From a virus, in IMG/VR virus record IMGVR_UViG_3300031963_014654, positions 6,502-70,501 of that record: DNA of 64,000 nucleotides. The stretch is one strand, 5' to 3'. Positions 17,711 to 54,029 of this stretch are shown here, in pieces. Both the position numbers and the translations under genes were made by a program. The number at the start of each line of letters is the position of its first letter. The first letter of the stretch is position 1. The notes below the pieces were generated by a model that worked only from the letters and a program-made list of their open reading frames with translations, was not told the DNA's origin and did not search any database.

Positions 17711-17711
17711 A

Positions 17712-17933: not shown

Positions 17934-17936
17934 GGC

Positions 17937-19799
17937 TTATTTTCTTTTAAATACAAGAATATCACTTAATACATCGGTACGGTCAAAAACTCCATTTGGT
18001 AATCGGTAAGCATCTACTAAATCGGCTTTATCGGCAATCATTTGCTTAATTTTGCTGTTCCCTTGCTGTAAAAATGGTGTGCCTCCATTTGCAACTTCGG
18101 TTCCAATAATGTAAATTAATAATCCGTTTGGCAAAGTTAAGTCTAATCCGCGTAAAATAAAATATTCTATCCAATTTTTTGCGTTTGTATATTGTTTTTC
18201 GCCCATTCCCATTCCTAATCCAGAAACATCGCCATAAGGAGGATTTCCAATTACAAGGTCGAATTTTTGAATATCCGACAACTTATTTTTAACGGTATCG
18301 CGGTTTTTAATAAAAATATTTTCGAATGGCTGCAAATAAAAGTTGAATTGAGGATACAATATTTTACAAATAGTATAGCTGTATTTGTTTATTTCATAAC
18401 CTGTAGCCATGCTTTGAGTTGGAACATATTTTAAAAATTCGCCTGTTCCTACGCTTGGCTCCAAAACAGATTGCCCATCTTTAAATCCAAACTTATAAGC
18501 CAATGCCCACATTTTGCGAATAATTGCATCTGGTGTATAAAATTCTGTTAATGCTTTTTTAGCTTCTTCTATTGAGCCAAATTCTTCTACATCAATACCA
18601 CCGTAACCGGAGTATTCGCGCAAAAATTGTTTTTCTGAAAACAGGTAATTGTTTGGATCATCACCTTTTTGGTCAATTAATTGCTCAATTTCTTTGTTTT
18701 TTTGATAATCGCTTTTTTGTGGTTCGGATTTAACTGAACCATATTTACCATCCTGCGATTTATCGTTTTTAGGAAATTTCATGCGTTTGTTGATTGATCC
18801 ACCGCGAGCCATATAATTATTCCCATTTATTGCAAGTCCTTTATATCCACCGTTAAAAATTGTATCTATTTTGGAGTTGATTCCAAAATTGTCTTTTAAG
18901 TATTTTTCTATTTCATAGTATCCTGTTCCAGATTTTGTAAATACGAATAGCCTTCCTGTCGGGCTGGAATATTGTTTTTCTTCATCAATTCTATATATTT
19001 TATCTTTAAATTGGCTATAAAGCTCTGCTTTTATTTCATCAAAATAATCATATAAAATTGAGCCTTTTTCAATAACATGCCCACCAATTAAACCACCACG
19101 TGCCATTTCATCAAATTCCAAATCAACATTGTTAAGTTTAATTTCGCCACCATGCTCCATTTTATCGGTTTGTTCGCCTGCACAACCGCAATCTAATGGT
19201 TTTCCATTACCATCGCGTTGGTTAATTTCAGATAATTCATGGCAATATTCTTTGCTATTTTCGGCATTAATTACCACTTCACCACCTTCGGCTTCGGCTA
19301 CCGGTTTATTATTTACAACAATTTCGATTCCGCCATTATCGTGGCTTGGACCTTTTAATACGGTTCCATCTTTTAACTCCTGGATTGGTCCACCTTGCTT
19401 TAACACACCCATTTCTAATTTACGGTAATAATCGGGTGTTTCTTGAATATGATCGGCTGCAATGTATTTTGCTGCTTTGGTTGTGGATGGTAATTCGGTT
19501 TGTATTTTTTTGATTGTGGCTTTATGCTCCAATTCGGTTTGGCCACCTTCATTTATTTTTTTGATTAAATAATCGATGTATTTTTTTTCGGCTTTTGATA
19601 CAAATGTAAATCGATGCCCAGAATGATCGTAAATAACGTATGGCTTTTGTTTATACGAATCCAATTGCTTTACATCAATAAGTTTTTTAACGAGAATAAC
19701 ATCATCAATCATTTCTTTTTTGGTGATTAATTTTTCTTCGTAAATAACCTTGTTACGCAATGCTGCAGGAAGTGAATTAGCTTTTTTGTAGTCAATCAT
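17937..19799 (-). CDS. DarB-like N6-adenine DNA methyltransferase with N-terminal accessory domains
   Basis: YSGYGG, EFYTP, LEPSVGTG, GNPPY; N-terminal ELEH..IAADHI.E.PDYY (DUF5661-like) and GPSHDNGGI..EAEGGE. Confidence 0.85.
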   Translation of the reverse strand: MIDYKKANSLPAALRNKVIYEEKLITKKEMIDDVILVKKLIDVKQLDSYKQKPYVIYDHSGHRFTFVSKAEKKYIDYLIKKINEGGQTELEHKATIKKIQTELPSTTKAAKYIAADHIQETPDYYRKLEMGVLKQGGPIQELKDGTVLKGPSHDNGGIEIVVNNKPVAEAEGGEVVINAENSKEYCHELSEINQRDGNGKPLDCGCAGEQTDKMEHGGEIKLNNVDLEFDEMARGGLIGGHVIEKGSILYDYFDEIKAELYSQFKDKIYRIDEEKQYSSPTGRLFVFTKSGTGYYEIEKYLKDNFGINSKIDTIFNGGYKGLAINGNNYMARGGSINKRMKFPKNDKSQDGKYGSVKSEPQKSDYQKNKEIEQLIDQKGDDPNNYLFSEKQFLREYSGYGGIDVEEFGSIEEAKKALTEFYTPDAIIRKMWALAYKFGFKDGQSVLEPSVGTGEFLKYVPTQSMATGYEINKYSYTICKILYPQFNFYLQPFENIFIKNRDTVKNKLSDIQKFDLVIGNPPYGDVSGLGMGMGEKQYTNAKNWIEYFILRGLDLTLPNGLLIYIIGTEVANGGTPFLQQGNSKIKQMIADKADLVDAYRLPNGVFDRTDVLSDILVFKRK

Positions 19800-25846: not shown

Positions 25847-26686
25847 CTAAATTTTAATCCAATCTGCAGGAATTAAATCCTGTGTATTGTAATGGTTTAA
25901 TTGTGGTCCGAACCATTGGTTTGGTGCAATTGTGATTCCGTATTGGTTATCAAAAAACATGTTTTTGGCAAGCCATGCAGCCCACCAACTAAAACTACTG
26001 TTTGCAATAATGTGGCTTTTGCATTGGGCCATTAAAAACAAATCCACAATATCGGAGTTTCCAGATACAAAATGGAGCTTGCAAATATCGTCCGGAACGG
26101 TTATGTTTTGTTTGCACCATTCAATATCATCTGAAAATACAATAAAATTAACCATTGACTTTACAGGAAATTCAAAATCTTTATAACTTAATAGTTTTAT
26201 GATTGCTCTATTGTAATAATCGGTTTCGGATAATGGTGGATGGCAATCTGGCTTTTGCAAATAATCGCCTCTACGAACATGAATTGCTACGGTATTTTGT
26301 AAATTCAAAAATTCGGCTCCTGCATTTCGAACAACACGCAAAAATTCGTTTTTTGGCATAAAGTGCCTGATAATCAAATCTTTGTTTTGAACAAAATACT
26401 TTTCTGACTGAAAAAAGCCATGCAAAATTGCATTTTTTTCCAATGGTAATGGTTTGTATTCGAATTGCAGGGCAAGTAATGGGTTATGCATTATGCCATT
26501 AAATTTGCAATCGTATGTTGTATCCAAATTATCATCAATTGGATTGATAAAGTATTTATTGTATTCCCATGTGGTAAATTGGGCTGCATCGTTTACATTG
26601 GCTGCATGTGATAATGTAGCTGCAATTTGAAACAATTGATTGCCTAACCTACCGGTATTTGGTGGATCAATTTTAAATATTACCAT
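25847..26686 (-). CDS. Alpha-1,2-fucosyltransferase (GT11)
   Basis: GRLGNQLFQ, GFFQSEKYF, IHVRRGDY, FSDD, NSSFSWWAAWL; likely start MVIFKID at 26686. Confidence 0.9.
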   Translation of the reverse strand: MVIFKIDPPNTGRLGNQLFQIAATLSHAANVNDAAQFTTWEYNKYFINPIDDNLDTTYDCKFNGIMHNPLLALQFEYKPLPLEKNAILHGFFQSEKYFVQNKDLIIRHFMPKNEFLRVVRNAGAEFLNLQNTVAIHVRRGDYLQKPDCHPPLSETDYYNRAIIKLLSYKDFEFPVKSMVNFIVFSDDIEWCKQNITVPDDICKLHFVSGNSDIVDLFLMAQCKSHIIANSSFSWWAAWLAKNMFFDNQYGITIAPNQWFGPQLNHYNTQDLIPADWIKI

Positions 26687-26996
26687 CGTAACCTGCTTTT
26701 GGTGGTGTATTATCTGATACTTCTTTTTGGATGTTTTCGGGATTACCGATAATGGTATTTCCTTCCTGGTCGATAATTTTCCAACCTGCAATTGCACAAA
26801 AACGTGCAAAGTCGCGTGCGCTCATTCCACCATAACCTTTAATTAGGGATGAAATTTTGTCGGCACGAAGGTGCATTTTTTTTAAATGTGGCTCGCGTGG
26901 TTTGTTTTTTATAAAAAATTCGGATACAAACTTTAGAATATCAAATTGCTTAAATATTGGTAGTTTTTCTTCTGGTTTAATTGGCTGTGTGCTCAT
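26673..26996 (-). CDS. Hypothetical protein, possible HTH
   Basis: 107-aa coupled ORF. Confidence 0.55.
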   Translation of the reverse strand: MSTQPIKPEEKLPIFKQFDILKFVSEFFIKNKPREPHLKKMHLRADKISSLIKGYGGMSARDFARFCAIAGWKIIDQEGNTIIGNPENIQKEVSDNTPPKAGYDGNI

Positions 26997-43271: not shown

Positions 43272-43466
43272 TTATGACTTTTGAAGAAATTTTATTTTCT
43301 TTTTTTCACCAATCATTGAATTATAGTCTAATTCAACTTTTAATGAATTAATTATTTTACCTGCCGTATTTGCAAGCTCTTTACCCATTTTCAAATCCAT
43401 TTTTTTTGTTTTCATTTGCTCATAATTATCAAGCAAACTAACTCTTAATTCTTCGATGTTTTGCAT
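43272..43466 (-). CDS. Small helical phage protein
   Basis: NIEELR..KELANTAGKIINSLKVELDY. Confidence 0.65.
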   Translation of the reverse strand: MQNIEELRVSLLDNYEQMKTKKMDLKMGKELANTAGKIINSLKVELDYNSMIGEKKKIKFLQKS

Positions 43467-44035
43467 AGTCTTTTTGTTTGGATTAATATTCTTTTAATTT
43501 CTAATAATTCTGGATTCTCCTTCAATTGATCCACGGTATATCCGTTTTTTTCCCTTAATAATTTACTTACATACCTATCCGCAATTTGCTCCCTTTTCGT
43601 CTTTTCTTTTTTGCTATCCCTTAAATTTATTTTTGCTCTGTTTTTTTTATTATAATCTTGATATGTTTTTTTGTTTTTGATATAATCATTTTTATTCCAT
43701 ACTTCGTTTTTTTGTTTCTTTTTACATGTAGGGCAATATTTAGCAATCAATATCCTATCAAACAATGAAGTTCCGCATCTCTTGCATAGGTTTTTAGCTT
43801 TTTTTTCTAAAATAATTTTTTCCTTTTTTTCACGATTTTCTTCTGCATTTTTAGAATGCCATATTTTAGAATTGTTACGATACCTTTTTAACTTTTCTGG
43901 ATTATTTAATAGCCAAATTTTATGATTAGCATATACGCATGATTTACAGCTACTTGTGTATTTCCCTTTTTTAATTTGAAATTCGGATATTTCTTTTTTA
44001 TCATTGCATTTAGTGCAAATCTTAAATTCAACCAT
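43445..44035 (-). CDS. Basic Zn-finger protein (homing-endonuclease-like N-terminus)
   Basis: KICTKC..KEISEF..CKSC; CKRCG..YCPTC; no clear HNH catalytic core. Confidence 0.6.
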   Translation of the reverse strand: MVEFKICTKCNDKKEISEFQIKKGKYTSSCKSCVYANHKIWLLNNPEKLKRYRNNSKIWHSKNAEENREKKEKIILEKKAKNLCKRCGTSLFDRILIAKYCPTCKKKQKNEVWNKNDYIKNKKTYQDYNKKNRAKINLRDSKKEKTKREQIADRYVSKLLREKNGYTVDQLKENPELLEIKRILIQTKRLCKTSKN

Positions 44036-44040
44036 AACGT

Positions 44041-44685
44041 TTAACCTTTATTTATGTTTTTACGAATATAGAACTTATCTCCCCAATGGCAATCGGTCAT
44101 TTTGCATTCGGCTGCTTCAAATCCATGTTCGGATAAAAAAGCATCAATTTCATGTACCAATGCACAACCTTTGTAAAGCTCCTGATCATTAACTTCGGTA
44201 TAAATGTAATTTATGTGCTTTAGGTTATTTTCCATGCCTTTTAATGCAAGCAATTCGGCACCTTGAATATCTATATTCAAAAAATCGTAATACTCCATAT
44301 CAATGCATCCATGTTCAATTATATCATCTGCGGTGATGGTAATCATTTCAATTGATTGCACATTTTGAACGGAAGGATGGTATTCCAAATGCTTATCGAG
44401 TGGCAAAAAGGATGAAGATTCGCCATTATTGTTGGTAATGTTGAATGTAACTGATTGAAGTGATTTATCACTTACACATGCTTGTATTGCAAATGCATGT
44501 GGGTTTGATTCGATGTGTTTTTGAAGTTGTTCGAAAATTTCGGGGATTGGTTCAATCCAAATTTGATTTTCAACTCCTTTATCCAGGTATTGTTGTGCCT
44601 CCTGCCCTGTATTGGCACCAATATGGAATACACCCTTGGGGCGTATTCCGTATTTATCTATAAGTGTTGCGAATGGTATAAGCAT
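44041..44685 (-). CDS. FkbM-family methyltransferase
   Basis: GVFHIGANTGQE, WIEP, SSSFL, FLNIDIQGAEL.ALKG, YTEV, WGD. Confidence 0.9.
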   Translation of the reverse strand: MLIPFATLIDKYGIRPKGVFHIGANTGQEAQQYLDKGVENQIWIEPIPEIFEQLQKHIESNPHAFAIQACVSDKSLQSVTFNITNNNGESSSFLPLDKHLEYHPSVQNVQSIEMITITADDIIEHGCIDMEYYDFLNIDIQGAELLALKGMENNLKHINYIYTEVNDQELYKGCALVHEIDAFLSEHGFEAAECKMTDCHWGDKFYIRKNINKG

Positions 44686-45083
44686 TATTTTTGCTCTCCT
44701 TTCATCATTTTTGCTGCTACAGCAAAAAATTCGCCTTTATCAATTGTAATTGATTGATTTTGGATTTCGTGCATTTTTTGTAAGATAATGTTAAAATCAC
44801 CAGAAACATTAATTTTGCAATCGTTTGCTTCGTTTAATTCAAATGATACACGTGCGGTAATTTTTGGACCGGATTGCATTTGACTTTCTCTAATTTTTTG
44901 TTCCAACTTTTCACTTTCTGCACCTGCAGTTCTACCGTGCAAATATGCTCCAATAATTTTTTTATCGGTTTCGGATGGTGCTGTTGGTTTAAATATTTTT
45001 ATTGATTTTTCTTTCGAAACACTTTTTGATTTACCTGCAGCCTTTTGGGGTGCTGTTTTTTTTGTGGTTGCTTTTTTTGCCAT
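44685..45083 (-). CDS. Hypothetical protein with basic N-terminus
   Basis: 132-aa coupled ORF. Confidence 0.55.
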   Translation of the reverse strand: MAKKATTKKTAPQKAAGKSKSVSKEKSIKIFKPTAPSETDKKIIGAYLHGRTAGAESEKLEQKIRESQMQSGPKITARVSFELNEANDCKINVSGDFNIILQKMHEIQNQSITIDKGEFFAVAAKMMKGEQK

Positions 45084-45087
45084 GATT

Positions 45088-45822
45088 TTATTTTTGTTTA
45101 TAGGTTTGAATTAATTGATTGATTTTTTCGGTATAATTTTTTGTATTGAAATGACTATTTGCATGAATGCGGTGGTCCACTAACTTTTGGTTTATGTTAG
45201 TGAATTTAGCATCGGTATAACGCATAATGCGTAGCCATAAATCATAATCTTCTATTCCATCAAGTTCGGGATTGTATGGAAATTGTTCCATTAAATTGGC
45301 ACGAATAAGTGCGCTGCAATTTACAATTGGGTTGTGGCCATTGTAGGCATCTTCTACTATTTTATCGTGCAAAAATGGGCGTGGGCGTGGATTTATTTCT
45401 ATTTCTTTGCTTTGTGCATCAATATAATAACAATCGGTACCAATAACATCGTATGCATTGGCGTATTTTAATTGTTCTTCCAGCTTTGTTGGATGCCATA
45501 CATCATCTGCATCTTGGATTGCAAACCATTGTGCTTTTGGAAGCGAATATAAATTTTCTGAATATTGTAGTAGCAAATTAGATATAAAATTTAATGCATC
45601 TGATTTATTATCACAAGTTCCCATTGTAAAATCTTTAATTTTACCTGGATTATTTAAACGATATTCATCAACAATTTTTTGAGTATTGTCGGTGCATCCG
45701 TTTAACGCAACAATAAGATTAAAATTTTGGTGGGTTTGGTTTAGAACGCTTTCAATAGCTTGCCTAATGTAGCGTTCGCCATTACGAACCGCTAAAAGCA
45801 CATATACATGATTATTTCCCAT
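45088..45822 (-). CDS. Glycosyltransferase family 2
   Basis: VRNGERYI..AIESVLNQT, GCTDNT, IQDADD..KLE.Q, EDYDLWLR; likely start MGNNH at 45822. Confidence 0.9.
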   Translation of the reverse strand: MGNNHVYVLLAVRNGERYIRQAIESVLNQTHQNFNLIVALNGCTDNTQKIVDEYRLNNPGKIKDFTMGTCDNKSDALNFISNLLLQYSENLYSLPKAQWFAIQDADDVWHPTKLEEQLKYANAYDVIGTDCYYIDAQSKEIEINPRPRPFLHDKIVEDAYNGHNPIVNCSALIRANLMEQFPYNPELDGIEDYDLWLRIMRYTDAKFTNINQKLVDHRIHANSHFNTKNYTEKINQLIQTYKQK

Positions 45823-45907
45823 TTTTTGTTTGTAAATTTTAGGCAATATTAAACCTTTATTTGTAATATGCAAACTTTATTTTAATTTACTTATTAACAA
45901 TTAAATG

Positions 45908-46696
45908 TTAATTACGGTAATAATTGGTTCCTTTTGCTGCTTTATCTTTATCTACAAATATAATTTTGGGCGTAAATGGTGGTTCTATTGCCCAACGCTG
46001 TTTAATGTATTCTTGGTTTTCCATCCAAAGTTCGTACATGTATGGGTTAAGTTTACCAGGTTCGTGCTCGCAATAATGGTAGGTTGGTGGTAGAATTTTC
46101 ACCAAAGGTTCATTATTACACACAAATTTATTAATTGCTGATTCATCGTGCCAAATTGGTGTAATTCCAGCAAATTTATCGTTTTGAATGTATAAAAACA
46201 TTAATGCGCACATAGCTTTAAAATTATACGTTTGACCTCCATAAAATCCGCCTCCTACATAGATTGTTGGCTTGTGAGCAAAGCATGATGAATTGGCGTT
46301 TGTTTCGAATGGTGCTGCATCTGTTCTGTTTATGTATGCGCCATGTGCAACACAAACAATATGGTGCTTACATATTAAAGGAGTGATTTCGGAAGCAAAA
46401 TAAGCATCGGCATCTATTGCAAAACAATGTGTAAATTTTTCGTAGTGATTAAAATCGGAAAGGTATTTTGAATAAAAATACGAACGCCACATGGATGCTT
46501 CTGGGAATGGCTTATGCTCTACTTCGATGTATTCAATATCTCTTTTTGTTTCGGGCAAAGGTGTTGCTATATCGGAAACAAATATAACGTAAACAACTTC
46601 CTGCTGTGGCAAAAAATATTGATCGGCCGATTCGATTAATTTTGGAAGAAACTCGGTGTATTTGCCGGTTGCTGTAATAAATAGTGCTATTTTCAT
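45908..46696 (-). CDS. Family 6 glycosyltransferase (ABO/alpha-1,3-Gal(NAc)T-like)
   Basis: IALFITATGKY..F, FAIDAD, PFE, YVGGGFYGG, WHDESAINK. Confidence 0.85.
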   Translation of the reverse strand: MKIALFITATGKYTEFLPKLIESADQYFLPQQEVVYVIFVSDIATPLPETKRDIEYIEVEHKPFPEASMWRSYFYSKYLSDFNHYEKFTHCFAIDADAYFASEITPLICKHHIVCVAHGAYINRTDAAPFETNANSSCFAHKPTIYVGGGFYGGQTYNFKAMCALMFLYIQNDKFAGITPIWHDESAINKFVCNNEPLVKILPPTYHYCEHEPGKLNPYMYELWMENQEYIKQRWAIEPPFTPKIIFVDKDKAAKGTNYYRN

Positions 46697-47253
46697 TTTA
46701 TTAAAGAAAGTGTTTTTGGTATTCCGTTTTTAAAAAAGAATGTAGTAGTCCAACCTGTATAAGTAAATCCGTATTTGTCGGGTTCGTGTTGGTATGTTTC
46801 TATTCGTTGAAAACTATTCATTAAATTTTTTCCTGGTGCATAATACTCGCGTTCGGAATTATCCAATATTAAAACTCCATTTTTGGCTAAATATGGCAAT
46901 GCGGATTGAATACATGCTGCACGATTGCGCCCATCTACCAAAATAATATCGTATTTATCCCCAATTTTAGCTGCTTCGGCAATAGCATCGTGGTAAGATT
47001 GCTCCCTGCGCATTAACATACCATCTTGAGGCTTTGCTAAAAAACTTTTAGCTTGTTTGGTAATCTCATCCCACCATTGTGTATCGTGCTCCACAGAATG
47101 CAGCACTTTTACATTTTTTTGCTTTAAAAACCAAATGGTGCTTGCTCCCATTCCGTATTCGAAAATACGCAAATCTTTGCCATTATCAATTATTTTTTGA
47201 AGTATTCGATTAGCTTCTTCGGTAAGCCATGGTTCGGTGCGTAGTTGGTCCAT
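46693..47253 (-). CDS. Class I SAM-dependent methyltransferase
   Basis: PWLT, IFEYGMGASTIW, SVEHD..W, YDIILVDGRNR, GVLILDNS. Confidence 0.85.
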   Translation of the reverse strand: MDQLRTEPWLTEEANRILQKIIDNGKDLRIFEYGMGASTIWFLKQKNVKVLHSVEHDTQWWDEITKQAKSFLAKPQDGMLMRREQSYHDAIAEAAKIGDKYDIILVDGRNRAACIQSALPYLAKNGVLILDNSEREYYAPGKNLMNSFQRIETYQHEPDKYGFTYTGWTTTFFFKNGIPKTLSLIK

Positions 47254-48091
47254 TTGAGTTTAAATTTATATGTGATATTGGAGTTTGTATTTTGCTAATT
47301 GTATTGTGGCTCAAATGTAAGTAAATATTTGTTGTTTTTACATTGTTGTGCCCTAATAATCGTTGTATTAAATTAATATCTGTACCATATTCTACCATGT
47401 GCGTAGCACTTGTGTGGCGAATAAGGTGAGCATATATTCGCTTATTGCAAATTCCGGCTTTATCGGCCAATTGTTTTAAAACTTGGTTTACGCTGCTTTC
47501 GGTATATTGAATATCAAATTGGCCATTTAACACATACGTTTGGGATTTGTATTGATAATAATATGTTTCCAACAATTTTATTAAATCGGGATCAAGTGGA
47601 ACTTGCCTATCTTTTTTGCCTTTTGCTTGAATGATATTTATTATCATTCTACTACGATCAATGTGTTGCCATTTAAGGTTTATTAATTCGGAAACACGTA
47701 AGCTGCAGGAGTAAAGTAGCGATAATATTACTTTGTGCTTTAGGTTTGCACATACATCAAACATTTTTTGTATTTCCTGTACCGACAAAACGATTGGTAA
47801 TTTTTTGTCTTTTTTAGAAAAAGGAATTTTTTCTAATTTAATGGGCATTCCAACTGTTATTGAATAAAAGGATTTTATTGCACATAGTTTATGGTTACGT
47901 GTATTTATTGTTGGAAACGTTAATAGCCATTCTTTAATTTTTTGCGTTGAAATTGCTTTTGGCTCTGTTTCGCTGCTAAAATATTTTAAGAATGTTCCAA
48001 CCGAACACAAATAGTTTTCTTGCGTTCGCTCACTTGGATATTTTAACTTACAATCTGTCGAATATTTATCATACCATTTTCGAAATTCCAT
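47210..48091 (-). CDS. Tyrosine recombinase (candidate non-canonical integron integrase)
   Basis: Intact R-K-HxxR-H-Y set: LRVSE, AKGKKDR, HLIRH, LLGH, TNIY; N-terminal SAM-like YPSERTQENY. Confidence 0.92.
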   Translation of the reverse strand: MEFRKWYDKYSTDCKLKYPSERTQENYLCSVGTFLKYFSSETEPKAISTQKIKEWLLTFPTINTRNHKLCAIKSFYSITVGMPIKLEKIPFSKKDKKLPIVLSVQEIQKMFDVCANLKHKVILSLLYSCSLRVSELINLKWQHIDRSRMIINIIQAKGKKDRQVPLDPDLIKLLETYYYQYKSQTYVLNGQFDIQYTESSVNQVLKQLADKAGICNKRIYAHLIRHTSATHMVEYGTDINLIQRLLGHNNVKTTNIYLHLSHNTISKIQTPISHINLNSNGPTTHRTMAYRRS

Positions 48092-48130
48092 TTTGGACCT
48101 CCTTGTTTTATTGTTGTTTTAGACTGTTTT

Positions 48131-48150
48131 ATCTATATAGTAGTTAGGTG
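48131..48150 (+). other. attI-like primary recombination site (G|TTAGGTG at 48143)
   Basis: GTT core about 50 bp upstream of the recombinase start; the sequence after it is the reverse complement of CACCTAAC at the other end of cassette 1. Confidence 0.6.
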
Positions 48151-48181
48151 CAAGTTTTAAAACCCTACCCACCTGTGTTTA

Positions 48182-49042
48182 TCAAACTAAGTGGTTAAAA
48201 ATGTGTTCTATTACAGGTACAGTCCATCCGTTTCCTAGTAAATGGTATCTTTTACCACTTGCCACACCATTTGTATAATCTAAAGTAACCCCTTGTAATA
48301 TCTCACACTCATTTTCTGTTAATTTTCTAAGCCCTTTTTTCATCTTAACTATATTAGTAGCTGACCTATCGCATCTAAACGAATGTGGTGTTATGCAATT
48401 AGCTCTATTGTATTTTATTGATTTATTATAAAAATCAACAACTTCAATAGTATTTCCACTTTCTAAATATCTACAATTATCGTAATGTTTTATCTGATGT
48501 TCTTTACAGTAATATTTTTCATCTACATTTTCTAACAATACATTATCTATATAATATTGCTTAGTTATTATGTTTTCTAAAGGAATATTTGTCCAATAAT
48601 ATCTTTCTCTATTTTGTGCGGTAAAATTATTTGAATTTATTAAAACGCCTTTTACTCCTAAAAAATTATCTAAATCCAATTTACTTTTTTCTTTCATTTT
48701 TACATTTTCTAATAAAAAGTATTTAGGATTAGTTTCTTTTAAAATTCTTAGGTATTCATAAAATAGTTTTGATTTATCACCGTCTAATTCCTTACGTTCA
48801 AATTTTAAACTTGAAAAATCCTGACAGGGTGAGCCTCCAATAAGTAAATCAATTTTAGGTAAATCAATTGACTTTACATCAATAACGCTTCCGATATGTT
48901 TTGTATTTGGATAGTTTTTTTTAGTTATGAAAATAGCATCTTTATCAATTTCACTCGCAAAATAATTATCTACTTTGATTCCTAAATTATTTAAAGCTAT
49001 TTGTCCACAACTCATTCCATCAAATAAACTAAGTACATTCAT
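48182..49042 (-). CDS. C5-cytosine DNA methyltransferase (cassette 1)
   Basis: SLFDGMSCG, GGSPCQ, LLENV, QNRERYYW, LGNGW. Confidence 0.92.
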   Translation of the reverse strand: MNVLSLFDGMSCGQIALNNLGIKVDNYFASEIDKDAIFITKKNYPNTKHIGSVIDVKSIDLPKIDLLIGGSPCQDFSSLKFERKELDGDKSKLFYEYLRILKETNPKYFLLENVKMKEKSKLDLDNFLGVKGVLINSNNFTAQNRERYYWTNIPLENIITKQYYIDNVLLENVDEKYYCKEHQIKHYDNCRYLESGNTIEVVDFYNKSIKYNRANCITPHSFRCDRSATNIVKMKKGLRKLTENECEILQGVTLDYTNGVASGKRYHLLGNGWTVPVIEHIFNHLV

Positions 49043-49106
49043 TTTGTTTTAATTTTAAATTATATGTTTTACATTCCAATTTGCACTCCTTCGTTTTAAA
49101 ACCAGA

Positions 49107-49163
49107 CACCTAACCGCACCTAATAAACAGCAAGCCGATTTATTAGCTGCAAACCGTTAGCAG
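49107..49163 (+). repeat. attC-like site 1
   Basis: CACCTAAC..gcacctaataaa/tttattagctgc..aaaccGTTAGCAG. Confidence 0.75.
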
Positions 49164-49169
49164 AAAGCA

Positions 49170-49871
49170 CTACACTACTGCTAAAATTGAACTTTCGATT
49201 ATTTCTTGACATAATTCTTTTGGTATTTTTGAACGGTTAAAACTTCCTTTTTTGCCTTGCGTTCCTGTTTTCGATCCTCTTGGTGCAGGTTGATGATGAC
49301 AATTTTTGTTTCCGTTGTGGCACATTGGTCTTGGTTGCCATACTTCGCTATTTGTCCATATATCCGTTGGCTTTGCTCTATCGTCGCCATAAGTACAATA
49401 CCAAACCGTATGCCTTTTAAATCTTTGCATAAATGGCATTTTACGCATCATTCCTCTTGGGTTTTCAATAAAGAATACCATTTTAGGATTAATCAAAAGC
49501 CATTCATCGATTAGGCTAATAAAGTGTTGGTTTACTGCATCGCATTTTTTAGCGTATTCGCTTTTTGGATCTGTTCCATTTCGGTGTGTGCTTATTGCTG
49601 CAATAGTGTAAGTTGTGCAATCAGGAGAAGCCCAAACAACATCTGGAATAAATGGCACATCTTTAGTTTGTAATTCTTCAATATCAATGGCTAAATCTAT
49701 TTTATCAAACTTTTGCCAATCAATACTAAAAACATTCATCCCTTTTGCTTCGGCTACACTTCCAACGGATCGAGAACCAGCGAATAATTCTACTAAATTA
49801 CCCGTGCCATCTGCTAACATCGGTTTGGCAAAATTGCCGTTTGGTGCTTCTATTGAACTTTTATCTATCAT
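49170..49871 (-). CDS. C5-type DNA methyltransferase, divergent (cassette 2)
   Basis: ELFAGSRS, VWASPDCT, FIENP, YCTYG..KPTDIW, RSKIP. Confidence 0.8.
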   Translation of the reverse strand: MIDKSSIEAPNGNFAKPMLADGTGNLVELFAGSRSVGSVAEAKGMNVFSIDWQKFDKIDLAIDIEELQTKDVPFIPDVVWASPDCTTYTIAAISTHRNGTDPKSEYAKKCDAVNQHFISLIDEWLLINPKMVFFIENPRGMMRKMPFMQRFKRHTVWYCTYGDDRAKPTDIWTNSEVWQPRPMCHNGNKNCHHQPAPRGSKTGTQGKKGSFNRSKIPKELCQEIIESSILAVV

Positions 49872-49938
49872 TTGAACATTTGTTTTTTAATTAAACTTTT
49901 GGGAACGGCAACTTCGCCAAGCCGATAACCGTTATGTG
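49811..49938 (+). repeat. attC-like site 2
   Basis: CTGCTAAC + 23-bp arms atcggtttggcaaaattgccgtt/aacggcaacttcgccaagccgat + aaccGTTATGTG. Confidence 0.8.
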
Positions 49939-49942
49939 CCAT

Positions 49943-50467
49943 TTAAAGAGCGACACTACTCTCAACTTCATTGCCCCAAACATCCCAACCATCGGGTTTT
50001 ATTCGGGCAAATAGTTCAATCCTGTCTTTTCCGAAAATCTCTATCATCTCTCTTATCTCTTTTGGTTTTTCTGAATGTCTTAATTTTTTTGAACTTATCT
50101 GAATAAGTGTTGGTATAGTTTTCCGTTTTGGGAATTTAGGTAAATTACCTTTTCTGCCAACTAATAGAAATTCAGTTCTGTGATGGAATCCGTATAAGCA
50201 CAATCCATTCATTTTATCCCAAGTAATAGTTCTTTGATAGTTAAATCCCCATTCTTCCATAACTTCAAATGCTTGTCTTAAATATCCTTGTGTTGTCCAC
50301 AAAAACAAAATACTATCATCTTTTGCCAACATTTCCACATTCAAATTTTTTATATCCTCTATTTTCATCATCGGATATGAATGTTCTATCTGATTTGGTC
50401 TTGTTTTTCTTTTAAACATTTTTACATCCCAAGCAGGGTCGGCATATATTACATCGTATTTCTTCAT
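49943..50467 (-). CDS. MT-A70-family adenine methyltransferase (cassette 3)
   Basis: YDVIYADPAW, LFLWTT, WGF.Y, TEFLL, HSEKP, IELFAR, GWDVWGNE. Confidence 0.9.
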   Translation of the reverse strand: MKKYDVIYADPAWDVKMFKRKTRPNQIEHSYPMMKIEDIKNLNVEMLAKDDSILFLWTTQGYLRQAFEVMEEWGFNYQRTITWDKMNGLCLYGFHHRTEFLLVGRKGNLPKFPKRKTIPTLIQISSKKLRHSEKPKEIREMIEIFGKDRIELFARIKPDGWDVWGNEVESSVAL

Positions 50468-50497
50468 ATTTCTAAATTAAATTCGTAAATAAAAAAC

Positions 50498-50595
50498 GGC
50501 ACATAACACGGTATATAAGCAAGTTTGCCATTAAGTTTGTGGGTAATTTGAAACATTCTGCAAGGCAAACCTGCTCATATACCCATCCGTTATAT
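50498..50595 (+). repeat. attC-like site 3
   Basis: GGCACATAAC + 20-bp arms ggtatataagcaagtttgcc/ggcaaacctgctcatatacc + catccGTTATAT. Confidence 0.8.
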
Positions 50596-51009
50596 CCCCT
50601 TAATCAAATCGGCTACATTTTTCCAATCATTTGGTGATGCTGTGCTTTTGTTTTTATATAATTGGCGCAATACATTTAAAGTGTTATTAACCCTATCTTT
50701 TTTGGTATTATTGCTTTCATTATTTTTAACAGGCAAATTATCTGTTAAATCCCATTCTATGCAAATTCTACCGGTAACGCTGCATTTCTTTTCACCTTTT
50801 TCATAAATAACGCCTAATTCTCTTAACTCTGTGAACCTTGCTCTTGCTTGTGAAAAAATATTTTTCGAATTTAAACTATTTTGCATTGCCTCCGAACTTG
50901 TGCAAGGAGCATGTTGATATATCAATTCATAAACTTCTAGCCTGCGTTTTGTAAGCAAACCTTCGTTTTTTATTTGATTGTAACAATCAATGGATGTTTG
51001 TCTTGCCAT
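50590..51009 (-). CDS. Winged-helix-like DNA-binding protein
   Basis: VYELI..PCTSSE..RARFTELRELGVI....KC.VTGR. Confidence 0.6.
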   Translation of the reverse strand: MARQTSIDCYNQIKNEGLLTKRRLEVYELIYQHAPCTSSEAMQNSLNSKNIFSQARARFTELRELGVIYEKGEKKCSVTGRICIEWDLTDNLPVKNNESNNTKKDRVNNTLNVLRQLYKNKSTASPNDWKNVADLIKGI

Positions 51010-51013
51010 TTTT

Positions 51014-51313
51014 TTATTTATTTTGATTGTTATTTTTCATTTCGGCCATTTCGTTAAGTTTTTGCTGGAACTTACTTACTTTTAATACCTTTTTTGGCGT
51101 TTCTGTGGCTGCAGGTTCATTTTCTTGTTCCTGGTTAATTTTCCATACATAGTATGTTTTAAAATCGCTATCGGAAGTATTTAGTATGTTGCACCAAAAT
51201 TGAGCAATCCATTTGAACTTGAATTTTGTTGGATTGTGATTTTTGGGCTTACAAAACAACCAAAAACGTACTGATCCGTATGTGAATATTCCGTTGTATT
51301 TTATTATGTGCAT
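51014..51313 (-). CDS. Hypothetical protein
   Basis: 99-aa ORF. Confidence 0.5.
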   Translation of the reverse strand: MHIIKYNGIFTYGSVRFWLFCKPKNHNPTKFKFKWIAQFWCNILNTSDSDFKTYYVWKINQEQENEPAATETPKKVLKVSKFQQKLNEMAEMKNNNQNK

Positions 51314-51331
51314 ATTTTACAATTTTTATAT

Positions 51332-51460
51332 AAAAACAAAGCATCCCGAAACGGCTAGGTAAACAATAGTGGAAATGGGAAACCACACATGAAAACCATC
51401 GCCAATTTCGGGATGCTTCTTATTTCGTTACAGTTCAAATTTCCCATTTTTTGAATGTTT
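51332..51460 (-). ncRNA. Structured leader RNA or attenuator candidate containing a 30-codon ORF (51355..51447)
   Basis: 13-bp perfect inverted repeat aagcatcccgaaa/tttcgggatgctt around 54 nt, followed by a T-rich tract; directly downstream of promoter 51469-51499. Confidence 0.45.
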
Positions 51461-51468
51461 AACCGTGG

Positions 51469-51499
51469 CAAATATAATGGTTTATTTTATACTTGCAAA
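51469..51499 (-). promoter_or_regulatory. Bacteroidota-type -33/-7 promoter
   Basis: TTTG-N19-TATATTTG. Confidence 0.75.
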
Positions 51500-51661
51500 T
51501 TTATTTTATAAACACTTATGCCATGCCCGATTTTTTCAAATCAAGCTCATACTGCAATTTGCGGTATTTGTGGCCTTGGTGTATATTCCAAATGCTTAAT
51601 GCAAAAAATGCTACTGTTAGCAATGTAATTGCTGTTTGCATTCGTTTATGTTCGAGTAAAT

Positions 51662-51901
51662 TTACCATCTTTTTGCTGGGCAATATTGTTTTTTTAATGT
51701 TTGCTTTTCACTTAATATACAACCACATAATTTTATTACTTTGCCATTGTAATTAACATAGTTACCTGTTATTGGTGTTCCGCACCATTTACCATTTTTG
51801 AAGCTACATGTATTGCATTGTGCTTTACGAAAATTAATAACGGCTTGACTTGCTAATTCATCATTAGTAAGTACTTTAACTATGTTGGCTATTGTTCCCA
51901 T
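51662..51901 (-). CDS. Small Cys-rich protein
   Basis: R..QCNTC..CG..CGC.L..K......CP..RW. Confidence 0.65.
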   Translation of the reverse strand: MGTIANIVKVLTNDELASQAVINFRKAQCNTCSFKNGKWCGTPITGNYVNYNGKVIKLCGCILSEKQTLKKQYCPAKRW

Positions 51902-52133
51902 TGCGGCTTTTCTTTTCGGCTTTGCGTTTGCTTAAATAGCTAAATAACGATGCAACAGCAACACTACTACCTGCCAACAGTCCTACATCTTTAATTATTA
52001 CGCCAATAAATTCGGCAACTTCAGTTGATTCGGGAATATTTATCATAGCAATTAAGCCTGTGGTAATTGAACTTAACAATCCAGATACTCCAGGATGCTC
52101 AATTATTGCATTGGCAAGTTGTTTAAAAATCAT
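51876..52133 (-). CDS. Two-TM membrane protein (holin-like)
   Basis: Likely start MIFKQL at 52133; two hydrophobic helices and a basic tail. Confidence 0.55.
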   Translation of the reverse strand: MIFKQLANAIIEHPGVSGLLSSITTGLIAMINIPESTEVAEFIGVIIKDVGLLAGSSVAVASLFSYLSKRKAEKKSRNGNNSQHS

Positions 52134-52154
52134 ATTTTTGTTTTGCGTTTGATG

Positions 52155-52186
52155 CAAAGTTAAGTATTTTTTTATTTGTTTACAAA
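52155..52186 (-). promoter_or_regulatory. Bacteroidota-type -33/-7 promoter
   Basis: TTTG-N20-TAACTTTG. Confidence 0.7.
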
Positions 52187-52492
52187 TATTTCGTAAATGG
52201 GCACCAAATCAACAGATAATTTGTTTTCGTCATTTATTTTTTTTAACCCTTCGCGAATTTCGTTTAATTCTAATTCACTAAATTCTATTAAAAAAGTTGC
52301 TTTTGATCCTTTTTCGTTCCATCTTAATTGTGGTCCAAATTCAGTTATTTCAAAATCTTTTAATTCTTTTTGTGTTAATTGGCATTTTTTTGTAATGTCT
52401 TTATTGATAATCATTTGTGAGTAATTACCTTCTTTTTTCAATACGCCTGGAATCATTAAACGATCCAACAATGTTAATTTGATTTTTTTCAT
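52172..52492 (-). CDS. Hypothetical protein
   Basis: 106-aa ORF. Confidence 0.6.
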   Translation of the reverse strand: MKKIKLTLLDRLMIPGVLKKEGNYSQMIINKDITKKCQLTQKELKDFEITEFGPQLRWNEKGSKATFLIEFSELELNEIREGLKKINDENKLSVDLVPIYEIFVNK

Positions 52493-52515
52493 TTTTTTTG
52501 GTTTTTTATTTATAA

Positions 52516-52734
52516 TTAATAATTTTTAAAACTATCTTCTTTTTCTTCCATATTAGCCCACTCTATTCCTTTTTCCTTTATTTTACCGGTTTGTTTTTCA
52601 ATAGATATGGATTCATCAATTTTTTTATTGAGCTTGTTTTCTTCCAACCAATCCTCAAGATGCTTTTCGTTTTCAAACAATTGGCTCCCATTCATTCCTT
52701 CTGGTGGATTTGGTATTGTTAATAGTATTTTCAT
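52516..52734 (-). CDS. Hypothetical protein
   Basis: 72-aa ORF. Confidence 0.5.
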   Translation of the reverse strand: MKILLTIPNPPEGMNGSQLFENEKHLEDWLEENKLNKKIDESISIEKQTGKIKEKGIEWANMEEKEDSFKNY

Positions 52735-52736
52735 TG

Positions 52737-53303
52737 TTATTTTTTAGTTAAAATAAAATGTAAATCATCAACTACATTCCAATAATGACTGCCTGCAAAT
52801 TGCTTTGCCTCTAATGATCGTGCAACCCAATTACCATTAACTGCTTCGCCAACAACATAATCAAAATCGCATTTAACATTGTAATGGTCTAATTTATTTA
52901 CTTCTCTCCATGCTTTGTTAAAATACAATACAGTTTGTGCTGGAATAAATCTACGATGTGTTGGATCTTGAAATGCTCTTGTACTTGTACAGTTTGGGAA
53001 AATTAATGTTACTTTGCCTCCTGGTTTTAAAATTCGGTAGCATTCATCAATAAATGCAAATAGTTTATCTTTTCCATTTATAAACTCCATGGGAATATGT
53101 TCAATAAAATGTGATGAAAATATTTCATCTACCGTATTATCTTCGAATGGATAAGGGAAGTTGTTAAACAAATCGTGTTTAATATCACAATCGCCTGCTA
53201 TATCAACGCCAATAAATCCTGGTTGCTTGTTTTGGCCACATGCTAAATCAACTCTTAATGGACCTTCTGGTTGTACTGTTTTAATGCTTTTTTTCTTTGT
53301 CAT
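52737..53303 (-). CDS. SAM-dependent methyltransferase (type 11-like)
   Basis: VDLACG, GVD, PFEDNTVDEI.SSHFIEH, ECYRILKPGG, DPTH. Confidence 0.9.
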   Translation of the reverse strand: MTKKKSIKTVQPEGPLRVDLACGQNKQPGFIGVDIAGDCDIKHDLFNNFPYPFEDNTVDEIFSSHFIEHIPMEFINGKDKLFAFIDECYRILKPGGKVTLIFPNCTSTRAFQDPTHRRFIPAQTVLYFNKAWREVNKLDHYNVKCDFDYVVGEAVNGNWVARSLEAKQFAGSHYWNVVDDLHFILTKK

Positions 53304-53315
53304 ATTTTTTTATTT

Positions 53316-54029
53316 TTACCAAGTTATATCTGAATTTAAGTCATAATGACCTACTTTAACCGAACAATCTATTGCGCAACGGTATCCATGTTTTCGAGCA
53401 TCGGCCCAAAAATATAAATCTTGCGTTCCAATACCTTGCCCTTCAATGCCTGTTAATGTTTTGAACCATGGCCTTCTTAGGTTTGAATCTTTAAACATTG
53501 ATATTCTCCATAAATTAAAGCCCATGCCTGTTCCGCAGCATTCAACTAATCCGCCATTAATATCTGGTGGTTGTGGTCTAAAATTTATGTTTGGATCTTT
53601 TGCATCGCCCCATATTTGTGGCACGCCTCCTTCTCCTTTGGTCCAATACAATCCTCCAATACATGATAAATGTGGATTTTTTTCCATTGCTTGTATTAAT
53701 CGAAGTAAACCATCTGCAGGTGGAATATTATCATGTTCAATTGTTAGTATGTATTCCCATTGCGATAATTCTGGATGTGATAATACTTGCTCTATTGCAG
53801 ATGAAAATGCCTCGCCTACTTCCAATCCAATAGCAGCCATTTTAAATGAACCGTTGTTTGGTGGAAACATTAATGAGCAATGCGATAAATAAACTTTTGT
53901 TGGAATTGTTTTTGCGGCTGGAATAATCATTACAACACGTTGTTGTTTCCATGAACCGCCTTCAATTATTCTTTTTTGTGAATTAACAAGATTTTGATTG
54001 TGAATCCCACTTTCTATTCCTACTATCAT
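53316..54029 (-). CDS. Glycosyltransferase (GT2-like)
   Basis: YILTIEHDN, IGGLY, GMGFNL..F, PWF, QDLYF, VKVGH. Confidence 0.75.
   Translation of the reverse strand: MIVGIESGIHNQNLVNSQKRIIEGGSWKQQRVVMIIPAAKTIPTKVYLSHCSLMFPPNNGSFKMAAIGLEVGEAFSSAIEQVLSHPELSQWEYILTIEHDNIPPADGLLRLIQAMEKNPHLSCIGGLYWTKGEGGVPQIWGDAKDPNINFRPQPPDINGGLVECCGTGMGFNLWRISMFKDSNLRRPWFKTLTGIEGQGIGTQDLYFWADARKHGYRCAIDCSVKVGHYDLNSDITW

Follow-up and report, generated by a model that had tools for sequence, protein, structure and literature searches.

In the 64-kb stretch of viral DNA analyzed here (the window), three DNA methyltransferase (MTase) genes lie in a row on the minus strand, each preceded by an imperfect-palindromic, attC-like site, and are followed by the gene of an Xer-like tyrosine recombinase (Table 1). 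A strict scan of the 64 kb returned exactly three hairpin sites, all on the minus strand and between the MTase genes, and none on the plus strand. The initial annotation of this DNA, made from the sequence alone, had placed one MTase in each of three cassettes, and the positions of the sites agree with this. From this setting we interpret the three genes as the cargo of three mobile cassettes that form an integron-like array on a phage, whose hosts probably belong to the Bacteroidota.

Table 1. Features of the cassette array and other genes discussed in the text, in window coordinates.
Feature	Position	Strand	Details
Polyvalent "DarB-like" protein, 2792 aa	9332-17710		ddrB-ParB, SNF2, Zeta-toxin and LPD11 domains
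Fourth DNA-MTase gene	17937-19799		N6_Mtase/Eco57I
Endonuclease VII/HNH-like ORF	43445-44035
Other SAM-MTase	44041-44685		FkbM
Other SAM-MTase	46693-47253		Methyltransf_24
Tyrosine recombinase, Xer-like, 293 aa	47210..48091	-	PF00589 2e-36, PF13495
attI-like junction	48133..48150	-	5′ box CACCTAAC of last cassette abuts constant motif TACTATATAG
Cassette 1, 1013 nt	48144..49156	-	attC-like site C, then C5 MTase ORF
C5 MTase, Dcm-type	48182-49042	-	PF00145 E 4.2e-39; TIGR00675 dcm 9.6e-40; phrog_116 3.6e-60
Site C, 47-nt span	49108-49162	-	5′ box TGCTAAC, 3′ box GTTAGGTG
Cassette 2, 775 nt	49157..49931	-	attC-like site B, then divergent C5-type MTase ORF
Divergent C5-type MTase (ORF2)	49170-49871	-	phrog_757 "DNA methyltransferase" 1.4e-26
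Site B, 118-nt span	49812-49937	-	5′ box ACATAAC, 3′ box GTTAGCA
Cassette 3, 658 nt	49932..50589	-	attC-like site A, then MT-A70 MTase ORF
MT-A70 MTase	49943-50467	-	PF05063 E 2.6e-29; phrog_359 5.2e-53
Site A, 87-nt span	50501-50595	-	3′ box GTTATGT
First gene past the array, 139 aa	50590..51009	-	phrog_1123; stop codon inside site A 5′ box
Other SAM-MTase	52737-53303		Methyltransf_11

The boxes at the ends of the sites define the cassette boundaries. The 3′ boxes of sites A and B are reverse complements of the 5′ boxes of sites B and C, respectively, and that of site C is complementary in the same sense to the junction box at 8 of 8 positions, so that the rule of complementarity between a 3′ box and the next 5′ box (the box rule) holds at all three window junctions. 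Folded as single-stranded DNA, all three sites are more stable on the minus strand, with energies of −10.4 kcal/mol against −5.5 for the plus strand at site C (z −4.05), −18.2 against −16.8 at site B and −17.4 against −12.6 at site A. The annotated ATG of ORF2 and its first 17 codons fall within site B, a second candidate start codon, the ATG at 49820-49818, shares sequence with the 3′ box of that site, and homologues of the protein align mostly from residue 25-26 on. The walk along the chain of boxes ends at site A, and the gene beyond it was left out of the cassette count. Upstream of site A, a hairpin at about 51345-51430 was considered as the mark of a fourth cassette and discarded; it fits the chain at one of four positions and is followed by a run of T. 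Since the array abuts a recombinase gene, it is not a CALIN, the class of array in which two or more attC sites occur with no integrase nearby.

The identities that the initial annotation gave to the three enzymes are borne out by Pfam and phrog matches for the C5 and MT-A70 enzymes and, less firmly, by a phrog match, profile alignment and an AF2 fold for ORF2. The C5 MTase scores 135.3 bits against PF00145 (cut-off 22) over profile positions 1-322 of 324 and has the PCQ and ENV motifs, as expected for its class, and the MT-A70 enzyme covers the whole of PF05063 (positions 1-172 of 172) with a score of 102.8 bits (cut-off 23.9). ORF2 has no match in Pfam or NCBIfam, and searches of PDB sequences with either the protein itself or its profile yielded no usable match. 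Its family profile aligns with that of the C5-MTase cargo across motifs I-VI (105 columns, probability 95.1%, E 3.2e-8), and the best Foldseek matches of its AF2 model (pLDDT 72.6) are M.HhaI, M.HaeIII, DNMT3 and DNMT2, with E values of about 1e-6, a probability of 1.00 and moderate TM-scores of 0.41-0.52. The motifs SPDC and ENP are invariant across 26 homologues; a canonical target-recognition domain is absent, and the C-terminal part is Cys/His-rich and modeled with low confidence. Taken together, the phrog_757 match, the profile-profile alignment and the fold make "divergent C5-type" a fair label for this protein.

None of the neighboring ORFs tested (44041-53303) matches a restriction endonuclease family, as the initial annotation had also found, and the adjacent ORFs therefore do not pair any of these MTases with a cognate endonuclease in a restriction-modification system. 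Against the total of five MTases given there for the window, four DNA-MTase genes were confirmed, those of the three cassettes and one N6_Mtase/Eco57I gene. The "DarB-like" protein that had been counted among the five shows no MTase domain at E ≤ 0.001, and PF01555 is absent from the genome. Three further SAM-dependent MTases sit among glycosyltransferase genes and match no DNA-MTase family. An endonuclease VII/HNH-like ORF is also present in the window.

The recombinase retains R132, K157, H222, R225, H248 and Y257, which are invariant across 38 homologues. In sequence and length it best matches the Xer/dif recombinases (XerA, XerC/D), aligning over its full length with proteins of the XerA/XerC-like type and missing the insertion of ~40 residues that is specific to IntI. 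Xer proteins act on a double-stranded dif site to resolve chromosome dimers, and we know of no link between them and arrays of hairpin-bounded cassettes. Against the NCBIfam XerA/integron-integrase model the protein scores 184.5 bits, under the cut-off of 220, and against the integron integrase model TIGR02249 it scores 149 bits in two stretches, under the cut-off of 265. The alignment to IntI4 (2a3v) likewise splits in two where 23 residues (174-196) of the phage protein stand opposite 66 residues (177-242), and the IntI-specific insertion, the I2 helix, is lacking. This insertion underlies single-strand recombination by integron integrases according to PMC7790495, so the mechanism of recombination here may differ from that of integrons.

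A junction with the features of an attI site adjoins the recombinase gene at its 5′ end. It is located 54 nt upstream of the recombinase ATG in the window, and in related loci a motif of the type yTAAC/TAyTATATGTA (the slash marking the boundary) is found 53-126 nt upstream of the gene. Even loci with identical sequence to the right of AAC diverge to the left of it, such that variable sequence starts exactly at AAC. The sequence evidence suggests that the enzyme is probably the cassette integrase, and the phage may also use it for lysogeny. A megablast search of 50,697 phage records with 20 kb of the window gave no match, and a tblastn search with the recombinase found only three records, at ≤40% identity. 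Among 64 bacterial loci with distant homologues of the recombinase, none has a chain of three or more sites, four have a chain of two and 11 a chain of one. A complete 68-kb phage genome carries an array and no recombinase of this kind.

Of 81 related viral sources, 57 have the cassette system, and the longest array comprises 13 cassettes. With detector thresholds of our own choosing and a chain walk that demands exact 7-mers, these 57 sources hold 175 chained sites, and 28 sources have three or more. Upstream of the recombinase gene, 299 hairpin sites were counted in 380 kb, as against 70 in 529 kb downstream. When sites were first picked by their hairpin alone, 98 of 190 consecutive pairs matched at all four variable box positions, against 4.9 expected from shuffled partners, whereas the two boxes of one and the same site matched at all four in only 10 of 299. 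Cassette boundaries thus lie in the R box, and the ends that meet there are complementary, the signature of hybrid boxes. Among the 142 unique sites, 134 have a 5′ spacer that is 2-4 nt longer than the 3′ one, a G directly follows AAC in 140, and on the recombinase strand G.T pairs number 208 as against 53 A.C pairs. These sites therefore have the imperfect inverted repeats, AAC/GTT core, unpaired spacer and conservation of structure over sequence that characterize attC. Four proteins from the window flanks have no match in 80 viral loci (tblastn, 1e-5); with flanking genes not common to the loci, the module evidently occupies varied backbones.

The array shares much with bacterial integrons. 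In both, a cassette consists of one short ORF and an imperfect-palindromic site with AAC/GTT boxes, site lengths are about 45-130 nt, the boundary boxes are hybrid, one strand folds better than the other, the insertion site lies near the 5′ end of the recombinase gene, and cassette order varies between near-identical elements. Apart from being carried by a phage, the array differs from them in its recombinase and in its polarity: the longest ORF is on the recombinase strand, reading toward the recombinase gene, in 133 of 137 unique cassettes, whereas classical cassette ORFs point away from intI, are transcribed from a promoter located at the attI/intI end and have attC at their 3′ side. Because the ORFs lie on the opposite strand from the classical layout and read toward the recombinase, each site is 5′ of its ORF and transcription runs toward the recombinase. 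The missing IntI-specific insertion and the inward-pointing ORFs lead us to regard the phage array as a variant integron. A search of the freely accessible literature found no earlier description of a recombinase-linked phage cassette system.

Sites of attC type in virulent phages have been reported by Qi et al. 2023 (PMC9892861), including CALINs in Polaribacter phage P12002L, with orphan DNA MTases as cassette cargo and an anti-restriction benefit already suggested. That work covers 21 phages, 17 arrays without integrase and five MTases; it is not known to include a phage-specific recombinase family, an attI-like junction, a cargo census or shuffling between phages. The site type in P12002L is the one described here, its MTase genes gp35 and gp38 are surrounded by sites that obey the box rule, and a tblastn search of that phage found no close homologue of the phage-array recombinase. 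The arrays of four of our related loci (L162, L163, L165 and L171) likewise fit the description of a CALIN within the sequence examined.

Comparison of related loci indicates that cassettes move between phages. The loci L009/L012 and L011/L013, with backbones 99.2% identical, have cassettes F17, F19, F20 and F21 in common but in a different order, and L162 and L163 agree in backbone and right flank and differ in their cassettes. Cassette 2 of the window recurs in both L162 and L163 at ~95% DNA identity that ends exactly at the TGCTAAC box, beyond which all three contexts diverge; compensatory changes in the arms separate the three homologous sites. The closest relative of the MT-A70 gene (78% amino acid identity, in L244) is also bracketed by cassette sites, with another attC and another neighbor. 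Contigs from other metagenomes end at both edges of site C (49110 and 49162) and, in the case of sites B and A, at the crossover points predicted for them (49931 and 50585, respectively), and many further loose ends of such contigs fall inside genes. Contig joints such as 48159 to 49097 and 49992 to 50457 were set aside, their sides being 20-62 nt long at 90% likeness. The habitat labels of the metagenome runs, taken as labels only, are freshwater, "fungus", lake and wastewater.

These observations bear on whether the array in this particular phage is a fossil, acquired once and left with dead sites beside a recombinase that serves only prophage integration. The viral loci yielded no variant of precisely this three-cassette array, the I2 insertion is missing from the recombinase, and arrays exist also without this recombinase, all of which would suit such a history. 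Boxes, arms and strand bias are nevertheless intact in all three sites, the catalytic residues are conserved, and the junction motif is kept beside the recombinase gene throughout the family. In addition, other metagenomes contain contigs in which different sequence adjoins the MT-A70 cassette and site A exactly at the predicted crossovers. We consider a fossil array quite improbable.

A catalogue of the cargo in homologous viral arrays, which the initial annotation had proposed, proved to be enriched in MTases. DNA MTases are the commonest recognizable cargo and account for 23 of the 135 unique cassette ORFs, all 23 belonging to the 57 ORFs of at least 140 aa; by type they comprise ten N6_N4, seven C5, four Dam (one weak), one MT-A70 and one of the ORF2 type. 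The cargo MTases match four of 749 flanking ORFs of the same phages (Fisher p 3e-16), a phmmer control that detects only MTases resembling the cargo, and by this measure MTases are ~30-fold more frequent in cassettes than in the flanks of the same loci. No MTase family appears among the 25 Pfam families listed, of 49, for 150 flanking ORFs, and no restriction endonuclease family among the 24 Pfam families matched by the 135 cargo ORFs. Other recognizable cargo includes Tad3 (one), TAGT, the TET-associated glycosyltransferase (two), HAD_SAK_2 (two), RLIG1 (one) and PAPS-reductase-like proteins (four). The cargo as a whole is diverse: the 135 ORFs, mostly short and of unknown function, fall into 113 clusters. 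Stacked MTase cassettes recur in L163, L165, L168 and L171, and the window holds the sole all-MTase array found beside this recombinase.

The idea of an adaptive anti-restriction library, put forward in the initial annotation, is thus upheld in part. MTase enrichment, cassette mobility and the stacked arrays speak for it, but MTases are missing from 39 of the 57 arrays, and 112 of the 135 cargo ORFs encode something else, so the library must be broader than a "methylome". The same diversity of cargo, mostly short unknowns, raises the alternative that the cassettes are real and mobile yet form a neutral or selfish collection, in which orphan MTases, as small, self-contained and promoter-independent genes, are merely abundant passengers drawn from the accessory pool of phages and do no harm. 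Relatives of both the C5 MTase and ORF2 are indeed common outside cassettes. None of the five close relatives of the window C5 MTase (73-75% identity) is part of a cassette chain, and three stand next to another MTase in a tandem, and so MTase stacking can arise without cassettes; for the ORF2 family, at least 7998 relatives were found, some in MTase tandems of Bacillus phages, and 67 of 80 of its loci have no cassette bracketing. Such a collection would hardly account for the ~30-fold excess over the flanks of the same loci, for other recognizable cargo being of a counter-defense or DNA-modifying kind (Tad3, TAGT, RNA ligase, HAD_SAK_2), or for arrays that stack different MTase classes instead of duplicates, and on balance we find it unlikely.

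A second alternative accepts a function for the MTases, one other than evading restriction. They might set the time of phage gene expression or packaging, guard against nucleases of the phage itself or of a competitor, or modify host DNA to assist takeover. The endonuclease VII/HNH-like ORF and the polyvalent protein, with its nuclease-related ParB and Zeta-toxin domains, would fit such roles, and the phage is uncultured with no known host restriction system. Three specificity classes and an enrichment over unrelated backbones, however, suit general defense evasion better than regulation tied to one backbone, and orphan phage MTases are treated as established anti-restriction devices in PMC9892861. 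We accordingly give this alternative little credence. Like other orphan phage MTases, which are solitary C5, N6 and N4 enzymes without a restriction partner and may occur in tandem, those of the window stand alone; they differ in that each seems able to move singly and has a recombination site to itself.

The explanation that we favor, with a probability of roughly 0.7 for the whole of it, is that an Xer-like recombinase handles mobile, integron-like cassettes whose MTases shield the phage DNA from host restriction. Each cassette comprises one ORF and an imperfect hairpin; the hairpin has a 5′ box that ends in TAAC, then an unpaired spacer, two arms and a loop, and lastly a 3′ box starting with GTTA. 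The adjacent recombinase would cut within the AAC/GTT core of the folded single-stranded sites and thereby add cassettes at the conserved junction next to the recombinase gene, and remove or reorder them; we infer both this activity and the strand on which it takes place. The cassette ORFs would be read toward the recombinase within the single-direction transcription of the phage, which places each site 5′ of its ORF, and site B would supply the start codon of the cassette 2 ORF. The three orphan MTases, two acting on cytosine C5 and one, the MT-A70 enzyme, on adenine N6, would methylate the phage's own DNA and leave it uncut by host restriction enzymes, and in this way MTase cassettes probably help the phage to escape them. 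Across the family, the arrays may form a bank of accessory genes, largely for counter-defense, with MTases as the commonest identifiable item.

Sedentary chromosomal integrons have been described as banks of anti-phage defense systems (bioRxiv 10.1101/2024.07.02.601686). As far as that account goes, they resemble the phage arrays in storing genes of phage-bacterium conflict in cassettes, and differ in serving defense on the bacterial side, where the cargo here looks like counter-defense on the side of the phage. We put forward tentatively, and at slightly less than even odds, the wider proposal that Bacteroidota phages have their own kind of integron, in which an I2-less, Xer-like recombinase works on folded hairpins, the build is "backwards" (genes toward the recombinase, the site as 5′ leader), and the array serves as a rapidly reshuffled counter-defense bank of MTases first, then Thoeris inhibitors, DNA-glycosylating and RNA-repair enzymes and small unknowns. 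If this is correct, it would be the viral mirror image of defense-loaded bacterial integrons, a testable counterpart to the chromosomal integrons that store defense systems, and phages would swap anti-restriction genes singly through a dedicated site-specific system, beyond chance pick-up. It would also present a natural case of hairpin-site recombination without the I2 helix, which would bear on the evolution of integron integrases from Xer-like ancestors, and would tie published "integrase-less" attC clusters such as those of P12002L to a recombinase family able to act on them. The more than 100 short cassette ORFs of unknown function would then be candidate counter-defense proteins, and the arrays a rich source of undiscovered anti-defense proteins.

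On the minus strand, which carries nearly all ORFs of the window, an imperfect hairpin site precedes each of three methyltransferase (MTase) ORFs, and no restriction endonuclease family occurs among ORFs 44041 to 53303. To this extent the observation at the core of the initial annotation stands. Each site comprises a 5' box ending in TAAC, four to five unpaired bases (G first), two arms and a loop, zero to two unpaired bases, and a 3' box beginning with GTTA. A strict scan of the 64 kb returns sites A, B and C and no others on the minus strand, and zero sites on the plus strand. As single-stranded DNA, all three fold more stably on the minus than on the plus strand (A, -17.4 versus -12.6; B, -18.2 versus -16.8; C, -10.4 versus -5.5 kcal/mol). 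The 5' and 3' boxes within one site are not mutually complementary; the 3' box of each site complements the 5' box of the site that follows it downstream (the box rule). GTTATGT of site A thus pairs with ACATAAC of site B, GTTAGCA of site B with TGCTAAC of site C, and GTTAGGTG of site C with CACCTAAC at the junction, a box next to a constant motif that precedes the recombinase ATG by 54 nt. Integron cassettes look like this once recombined inside the core box.

Features of the cassette module and its surroundings in the window
Feature	Coordinates	Strand	Remarks
Tyrosine recombinase, 293 aa	47210-48091	-	PF00589
Junction box CACCTAAC	48143-48150		pairs with site C
Cassette 1	48144-49156		
Cassette 2	49157-49931		
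Cassette 3	49932-50589		
Dcm-type C5 MTase, full length	48182-49042	-	PF00145 E 4.2e-39; TIGR00675
Putative divergent C5-type MTase (ORF2)	49170-49871	-	phrog_757 'DNA methyltransferase' 1.4e-26
MT-A70 MTase, full length	49943-50467	-	PF05063 E 2.6e-29
Site C, imperfect hairpin	49108-49162	-	5' of C5 MTase ORF
Site B, imperfect hairpin	49812-49937	-	5' of ORF2
Site A, imperfect hairpin	50501-50595	-	5' of MT-A70 ORF
Motif GGTTTTAAAAC	48156-48166, 49090-49100	-	also in related locus L001, about 6640
11-bp stem, ~60-nt loop, then T run	about 51345-51430	-	just upstream of ORF 51014-51313
Cys-rich ORF, 196 aa	43445-44035	-	weak endonuclease VII/HNH PHROG matches (1.1e-7); near cassette module
Glycosyltransferase gene clusters	44041-47253, 52737-54029, 25847-26809	-	GT2, GT6, GT11, further GT-like ORF
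Polyvalent protein, 2792 aa	within 9332-19799	-	ddrB-ParB, SNF2 helicase, Zeta-toxin/AAA_33, LPD11 domains
Fourth DNA MTase	17937-19799		N6_Mtase/Eco57I domain

The annotated start codon of cassette 2 and 17 codons fall inside site B, and the homologous site of the related viral locus L001 (6227-6363) encodes a similar leader ahead of an unrelated ORF. In both, the start codon lies in the loop and a short leader peptide is coded through the 3' arm; many ORF2 homologues have the same N-terminal extension. The recombination site may double as a translation start region. The motif GGTTTTAAAAC, found again a short distance upstream of cassette ORFs and close to where cassette 1 ends, is a possible expression signal. 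The stem-loop beyond the array does not obey the box rule and may represent a terminator or the remains of a terminal site.

Pfam, NCBIfam and PDB sequence searches returned no match for ORF2, and several results place it as a probable divergent C5-type MTase. FAGS, SPDC and ENP motifs are invariant across 26 homologues, its profile aligns with that of the C5-MTase cargo over motifs I to VI (95.1% probability), and its structure model (pLDDT 72.6) is nearest to M.HhaI, M.HaeIII, DNMT3 and DNMT2. Its relatives number at least 7998, and in their source records some bear the name cytosine methylase. The C-terminal third is Cys/His-rich, poorly modelled and without a canonical target-recognition domain.

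Searching viral contigs with the recombinase profile returned 80 loci. Nearly all those with enough upstream sequence have a common junction motif, and loci identical to the right of AAC diverge to its left. When hairpin sites are located independently of the box rule, their density on the upstream side of the recombinase gene is six times that on the downstream side (299 per 380 kb versus 70 per 529 kb). Of 190 consecutive pairs, 98 satisfy the rule at all four variable positions, compared with an expectation of 4.9 from shuffling. Walking outward from the junction by this rule, we recovered 175 sites; 57 of the 81 sources have a chain, and the largest array holds 13 sites. Among the 24 chainless sources, 5 have no recognisable junction and 10 have <400 nt upstream. 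A more permissive walk on 64 loci of distant bacterial-genome homologues never linked three sites or more. Architecture is uniform across the 142 unique sites: 134 have a 5' spacer that exceeds the 3' spacer by 2-4 nt, 140 have G after AAC, 79 are 120-129 nt long, and G.T pairs outnumber A.C on the recombinase strand (208 versus 53). There are 137 unique cassettes (median 556 nt); 133 of them have their longest ORF on the same strand as the recombinase gene and pointing towards it, so that each site is 5' of its ORF. Some cassettes are 'empty', with about 25-40 nt from the 3' box to the next 5' box (L006/L008, about 1700-1760; L011, 5322-5342; L001, 6199-6231).

Related arrays bear traces of cassette mobility. 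The backbones of L009/L012 and L011/L013 are 99.2% identical from the junction onwards, with cassette orders of F17 F18 F19 F20 F21 F22 F23 and F15 F16 F21 F20 F17 F24 F25 F26 F19, respectively. Over a stretch that starts 14 nt before its site's 3' box and runs to exactly the next 5' box, the DNA of the window's cassette 2 shares about 95% identity with L162 and L163; past this box all three sequences differ, and the arm differences between its site and their counterparts are compensatory. L162 and L163 themselves share backbone and sequence right of AAC and differ in their cassette pairs. The MT-A70 gene has its closest relative (78% identity) in another cassette, whose site and neighbour are different. 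Contigs of four other metagenomes diverge at site C's edges and where crossover is predicted in sites B and A; many further breaks in this comparison fall inside genes.

With the plus strand taken as 'top', the arrangement of the recombinase gene, the insertion site, the boundaries of the cassettes and the better-folding 'bottom' strand matches that of a classical integron. Gene orientation is the exception: nearly all cassette ORFs read towards the recombinase. The recombinase, its catalytic residues conserved across 38 homologues, scores highest with the XerA/integron-integrase model, yet below every curated cut-off. With 23 residues opposite IntI4's 66 in a two-piece alignment, it lacks the insertion that defines integron integrases and that has been tied to single-strand recombination (PMC7790495). 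Its relatives number 5316 at E<=1e-20, the best 120 all >=68% identical. One cassette of a related array (L063, 4561-5541) has as its cargo another tyrosine recombinase gene (326 aa, PF00589 9.8e-38). Qi et al. 2023 (PMC9892861) report integron parts in 21 phages; one of these, Polaribacter phage P12002L, has two MTases in an attC cluster that lacks an integrase. They count five MTases in phage cassettes and suggest an anti-restriction benefit. We find gp35 and gp38 of P12002L flanked by the same site type, with the box rule holding. Within the journals of the searched collection, we found no account that links a phage recombinase family to such arrays, reports reversed cassette-gene orientation or takes a census of cargo. 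A chained MTase-cassette array is also present in L171 (record G004, 68 kb, terminal repeats, rated complete). Because this complete genome has no recombinase homologue, some arrays must depend on recombinase supplied in trans or be static.

The source record (70.5 kb, rated 100% complete) belongs to a tailed phage, as portal, terminase, capsid and tail-tube genes are present in related loci. For 11 of the recombinase's 16 best genome matches, the contig carrying the close homologue had been binned with Bacteroidota (Chitinophagales, Flavobacteriaceae, Pedobacter, Flavobacterium and others), which points to a Bacteroidota host, binning of phage contigs being unreliable. Glycosyltransferase clusters interspersed with FkbM, Methyltransf_24 and Methyltransf_11 genes lie on both sides of the cassette module; their substrate may be sugars of the host surface or of DNA. 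Five MTases had been counted in the window, of which we confirm four and not a fifth; the polyvalent protein itself has no MTase domain. The N6_Mtase/Eco57I-type domain lies in a separate 620-aa ORF directly upstream, and the pair resembles a DarB-like injected anti-restriction protein in two ORFs.

The 137 unique cassettes hold 135 primary ORFs in 113 clusters, classified by Pfam tally and then protein by protein. DNA MTases account for 23 of the 135, and for 23 of the 57 of >=140 aa: ten N6_N4, seven C5, four Dam-type (one weak), one MT-A70 and one ORF2-type. Other cargo includes four PAPS-reductase-like proteins, two TET-associated glycosyltransferases, two HAD_SAK_2 proteins, and one each of Tad3, RNA ligase, Radical SAM and the second integrase; the Pfam tally of the 135 ORFs contains no restriction endonuclease family. 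MTase families also top the PHROG tally. Among 150 random same-strand ORFs downstream of the recombinase gene, no MTase appears in the 25 families listed of 49 matched, and the 23 cargo MTases match only 4 of 749 non-redundant flank ORFs (Fisher p 3e-16). At least one MTase is present in 18 of 57 arrays, the window's being the only all-MTase array (L035, 3/5; L068, 2/3). MTases are stacked again in arrays located through ORF2 relatives, the recombinase not being in the sequence examined: N6_N4 and ORF2 type in L163, the same plus an unknown in L165, C5, N6_N4 and ORF2 type in L168, and two N6_N4, ORF2 type and a weak C5 in L171. The Tad3-type Thoeris inhibitor and the two glycosyltransferase homologues (L044, 5697-6311; L045, 5641-6504; L048, 1924-2799), the latter matching beta-glucosyl-HMC-alpha-glucosyltransferase in PHROG, are predicted counter-defence and DNA hypermodification functions.

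The initial annotation had read the array as an adaptive anti-restriction library, a swappable 'methylome'. The comparative test that it proposed supports this interpretation; 'methylome' proves too narrow, since most cargo is not MTase. Also against the 'methylome library' reading, none of the five close relatives of the C5 gene is in a cassette, and plain MTase tandems are a frequent setting for them; 67 of 80 ORF2-family loci are not cassettes. We infer the biochemical steps of cassette and MTase function. The comparisons of cargo support a wider role, in which the array would be a bank of counter-defence and accessory genes, MTases being its most frequent item.
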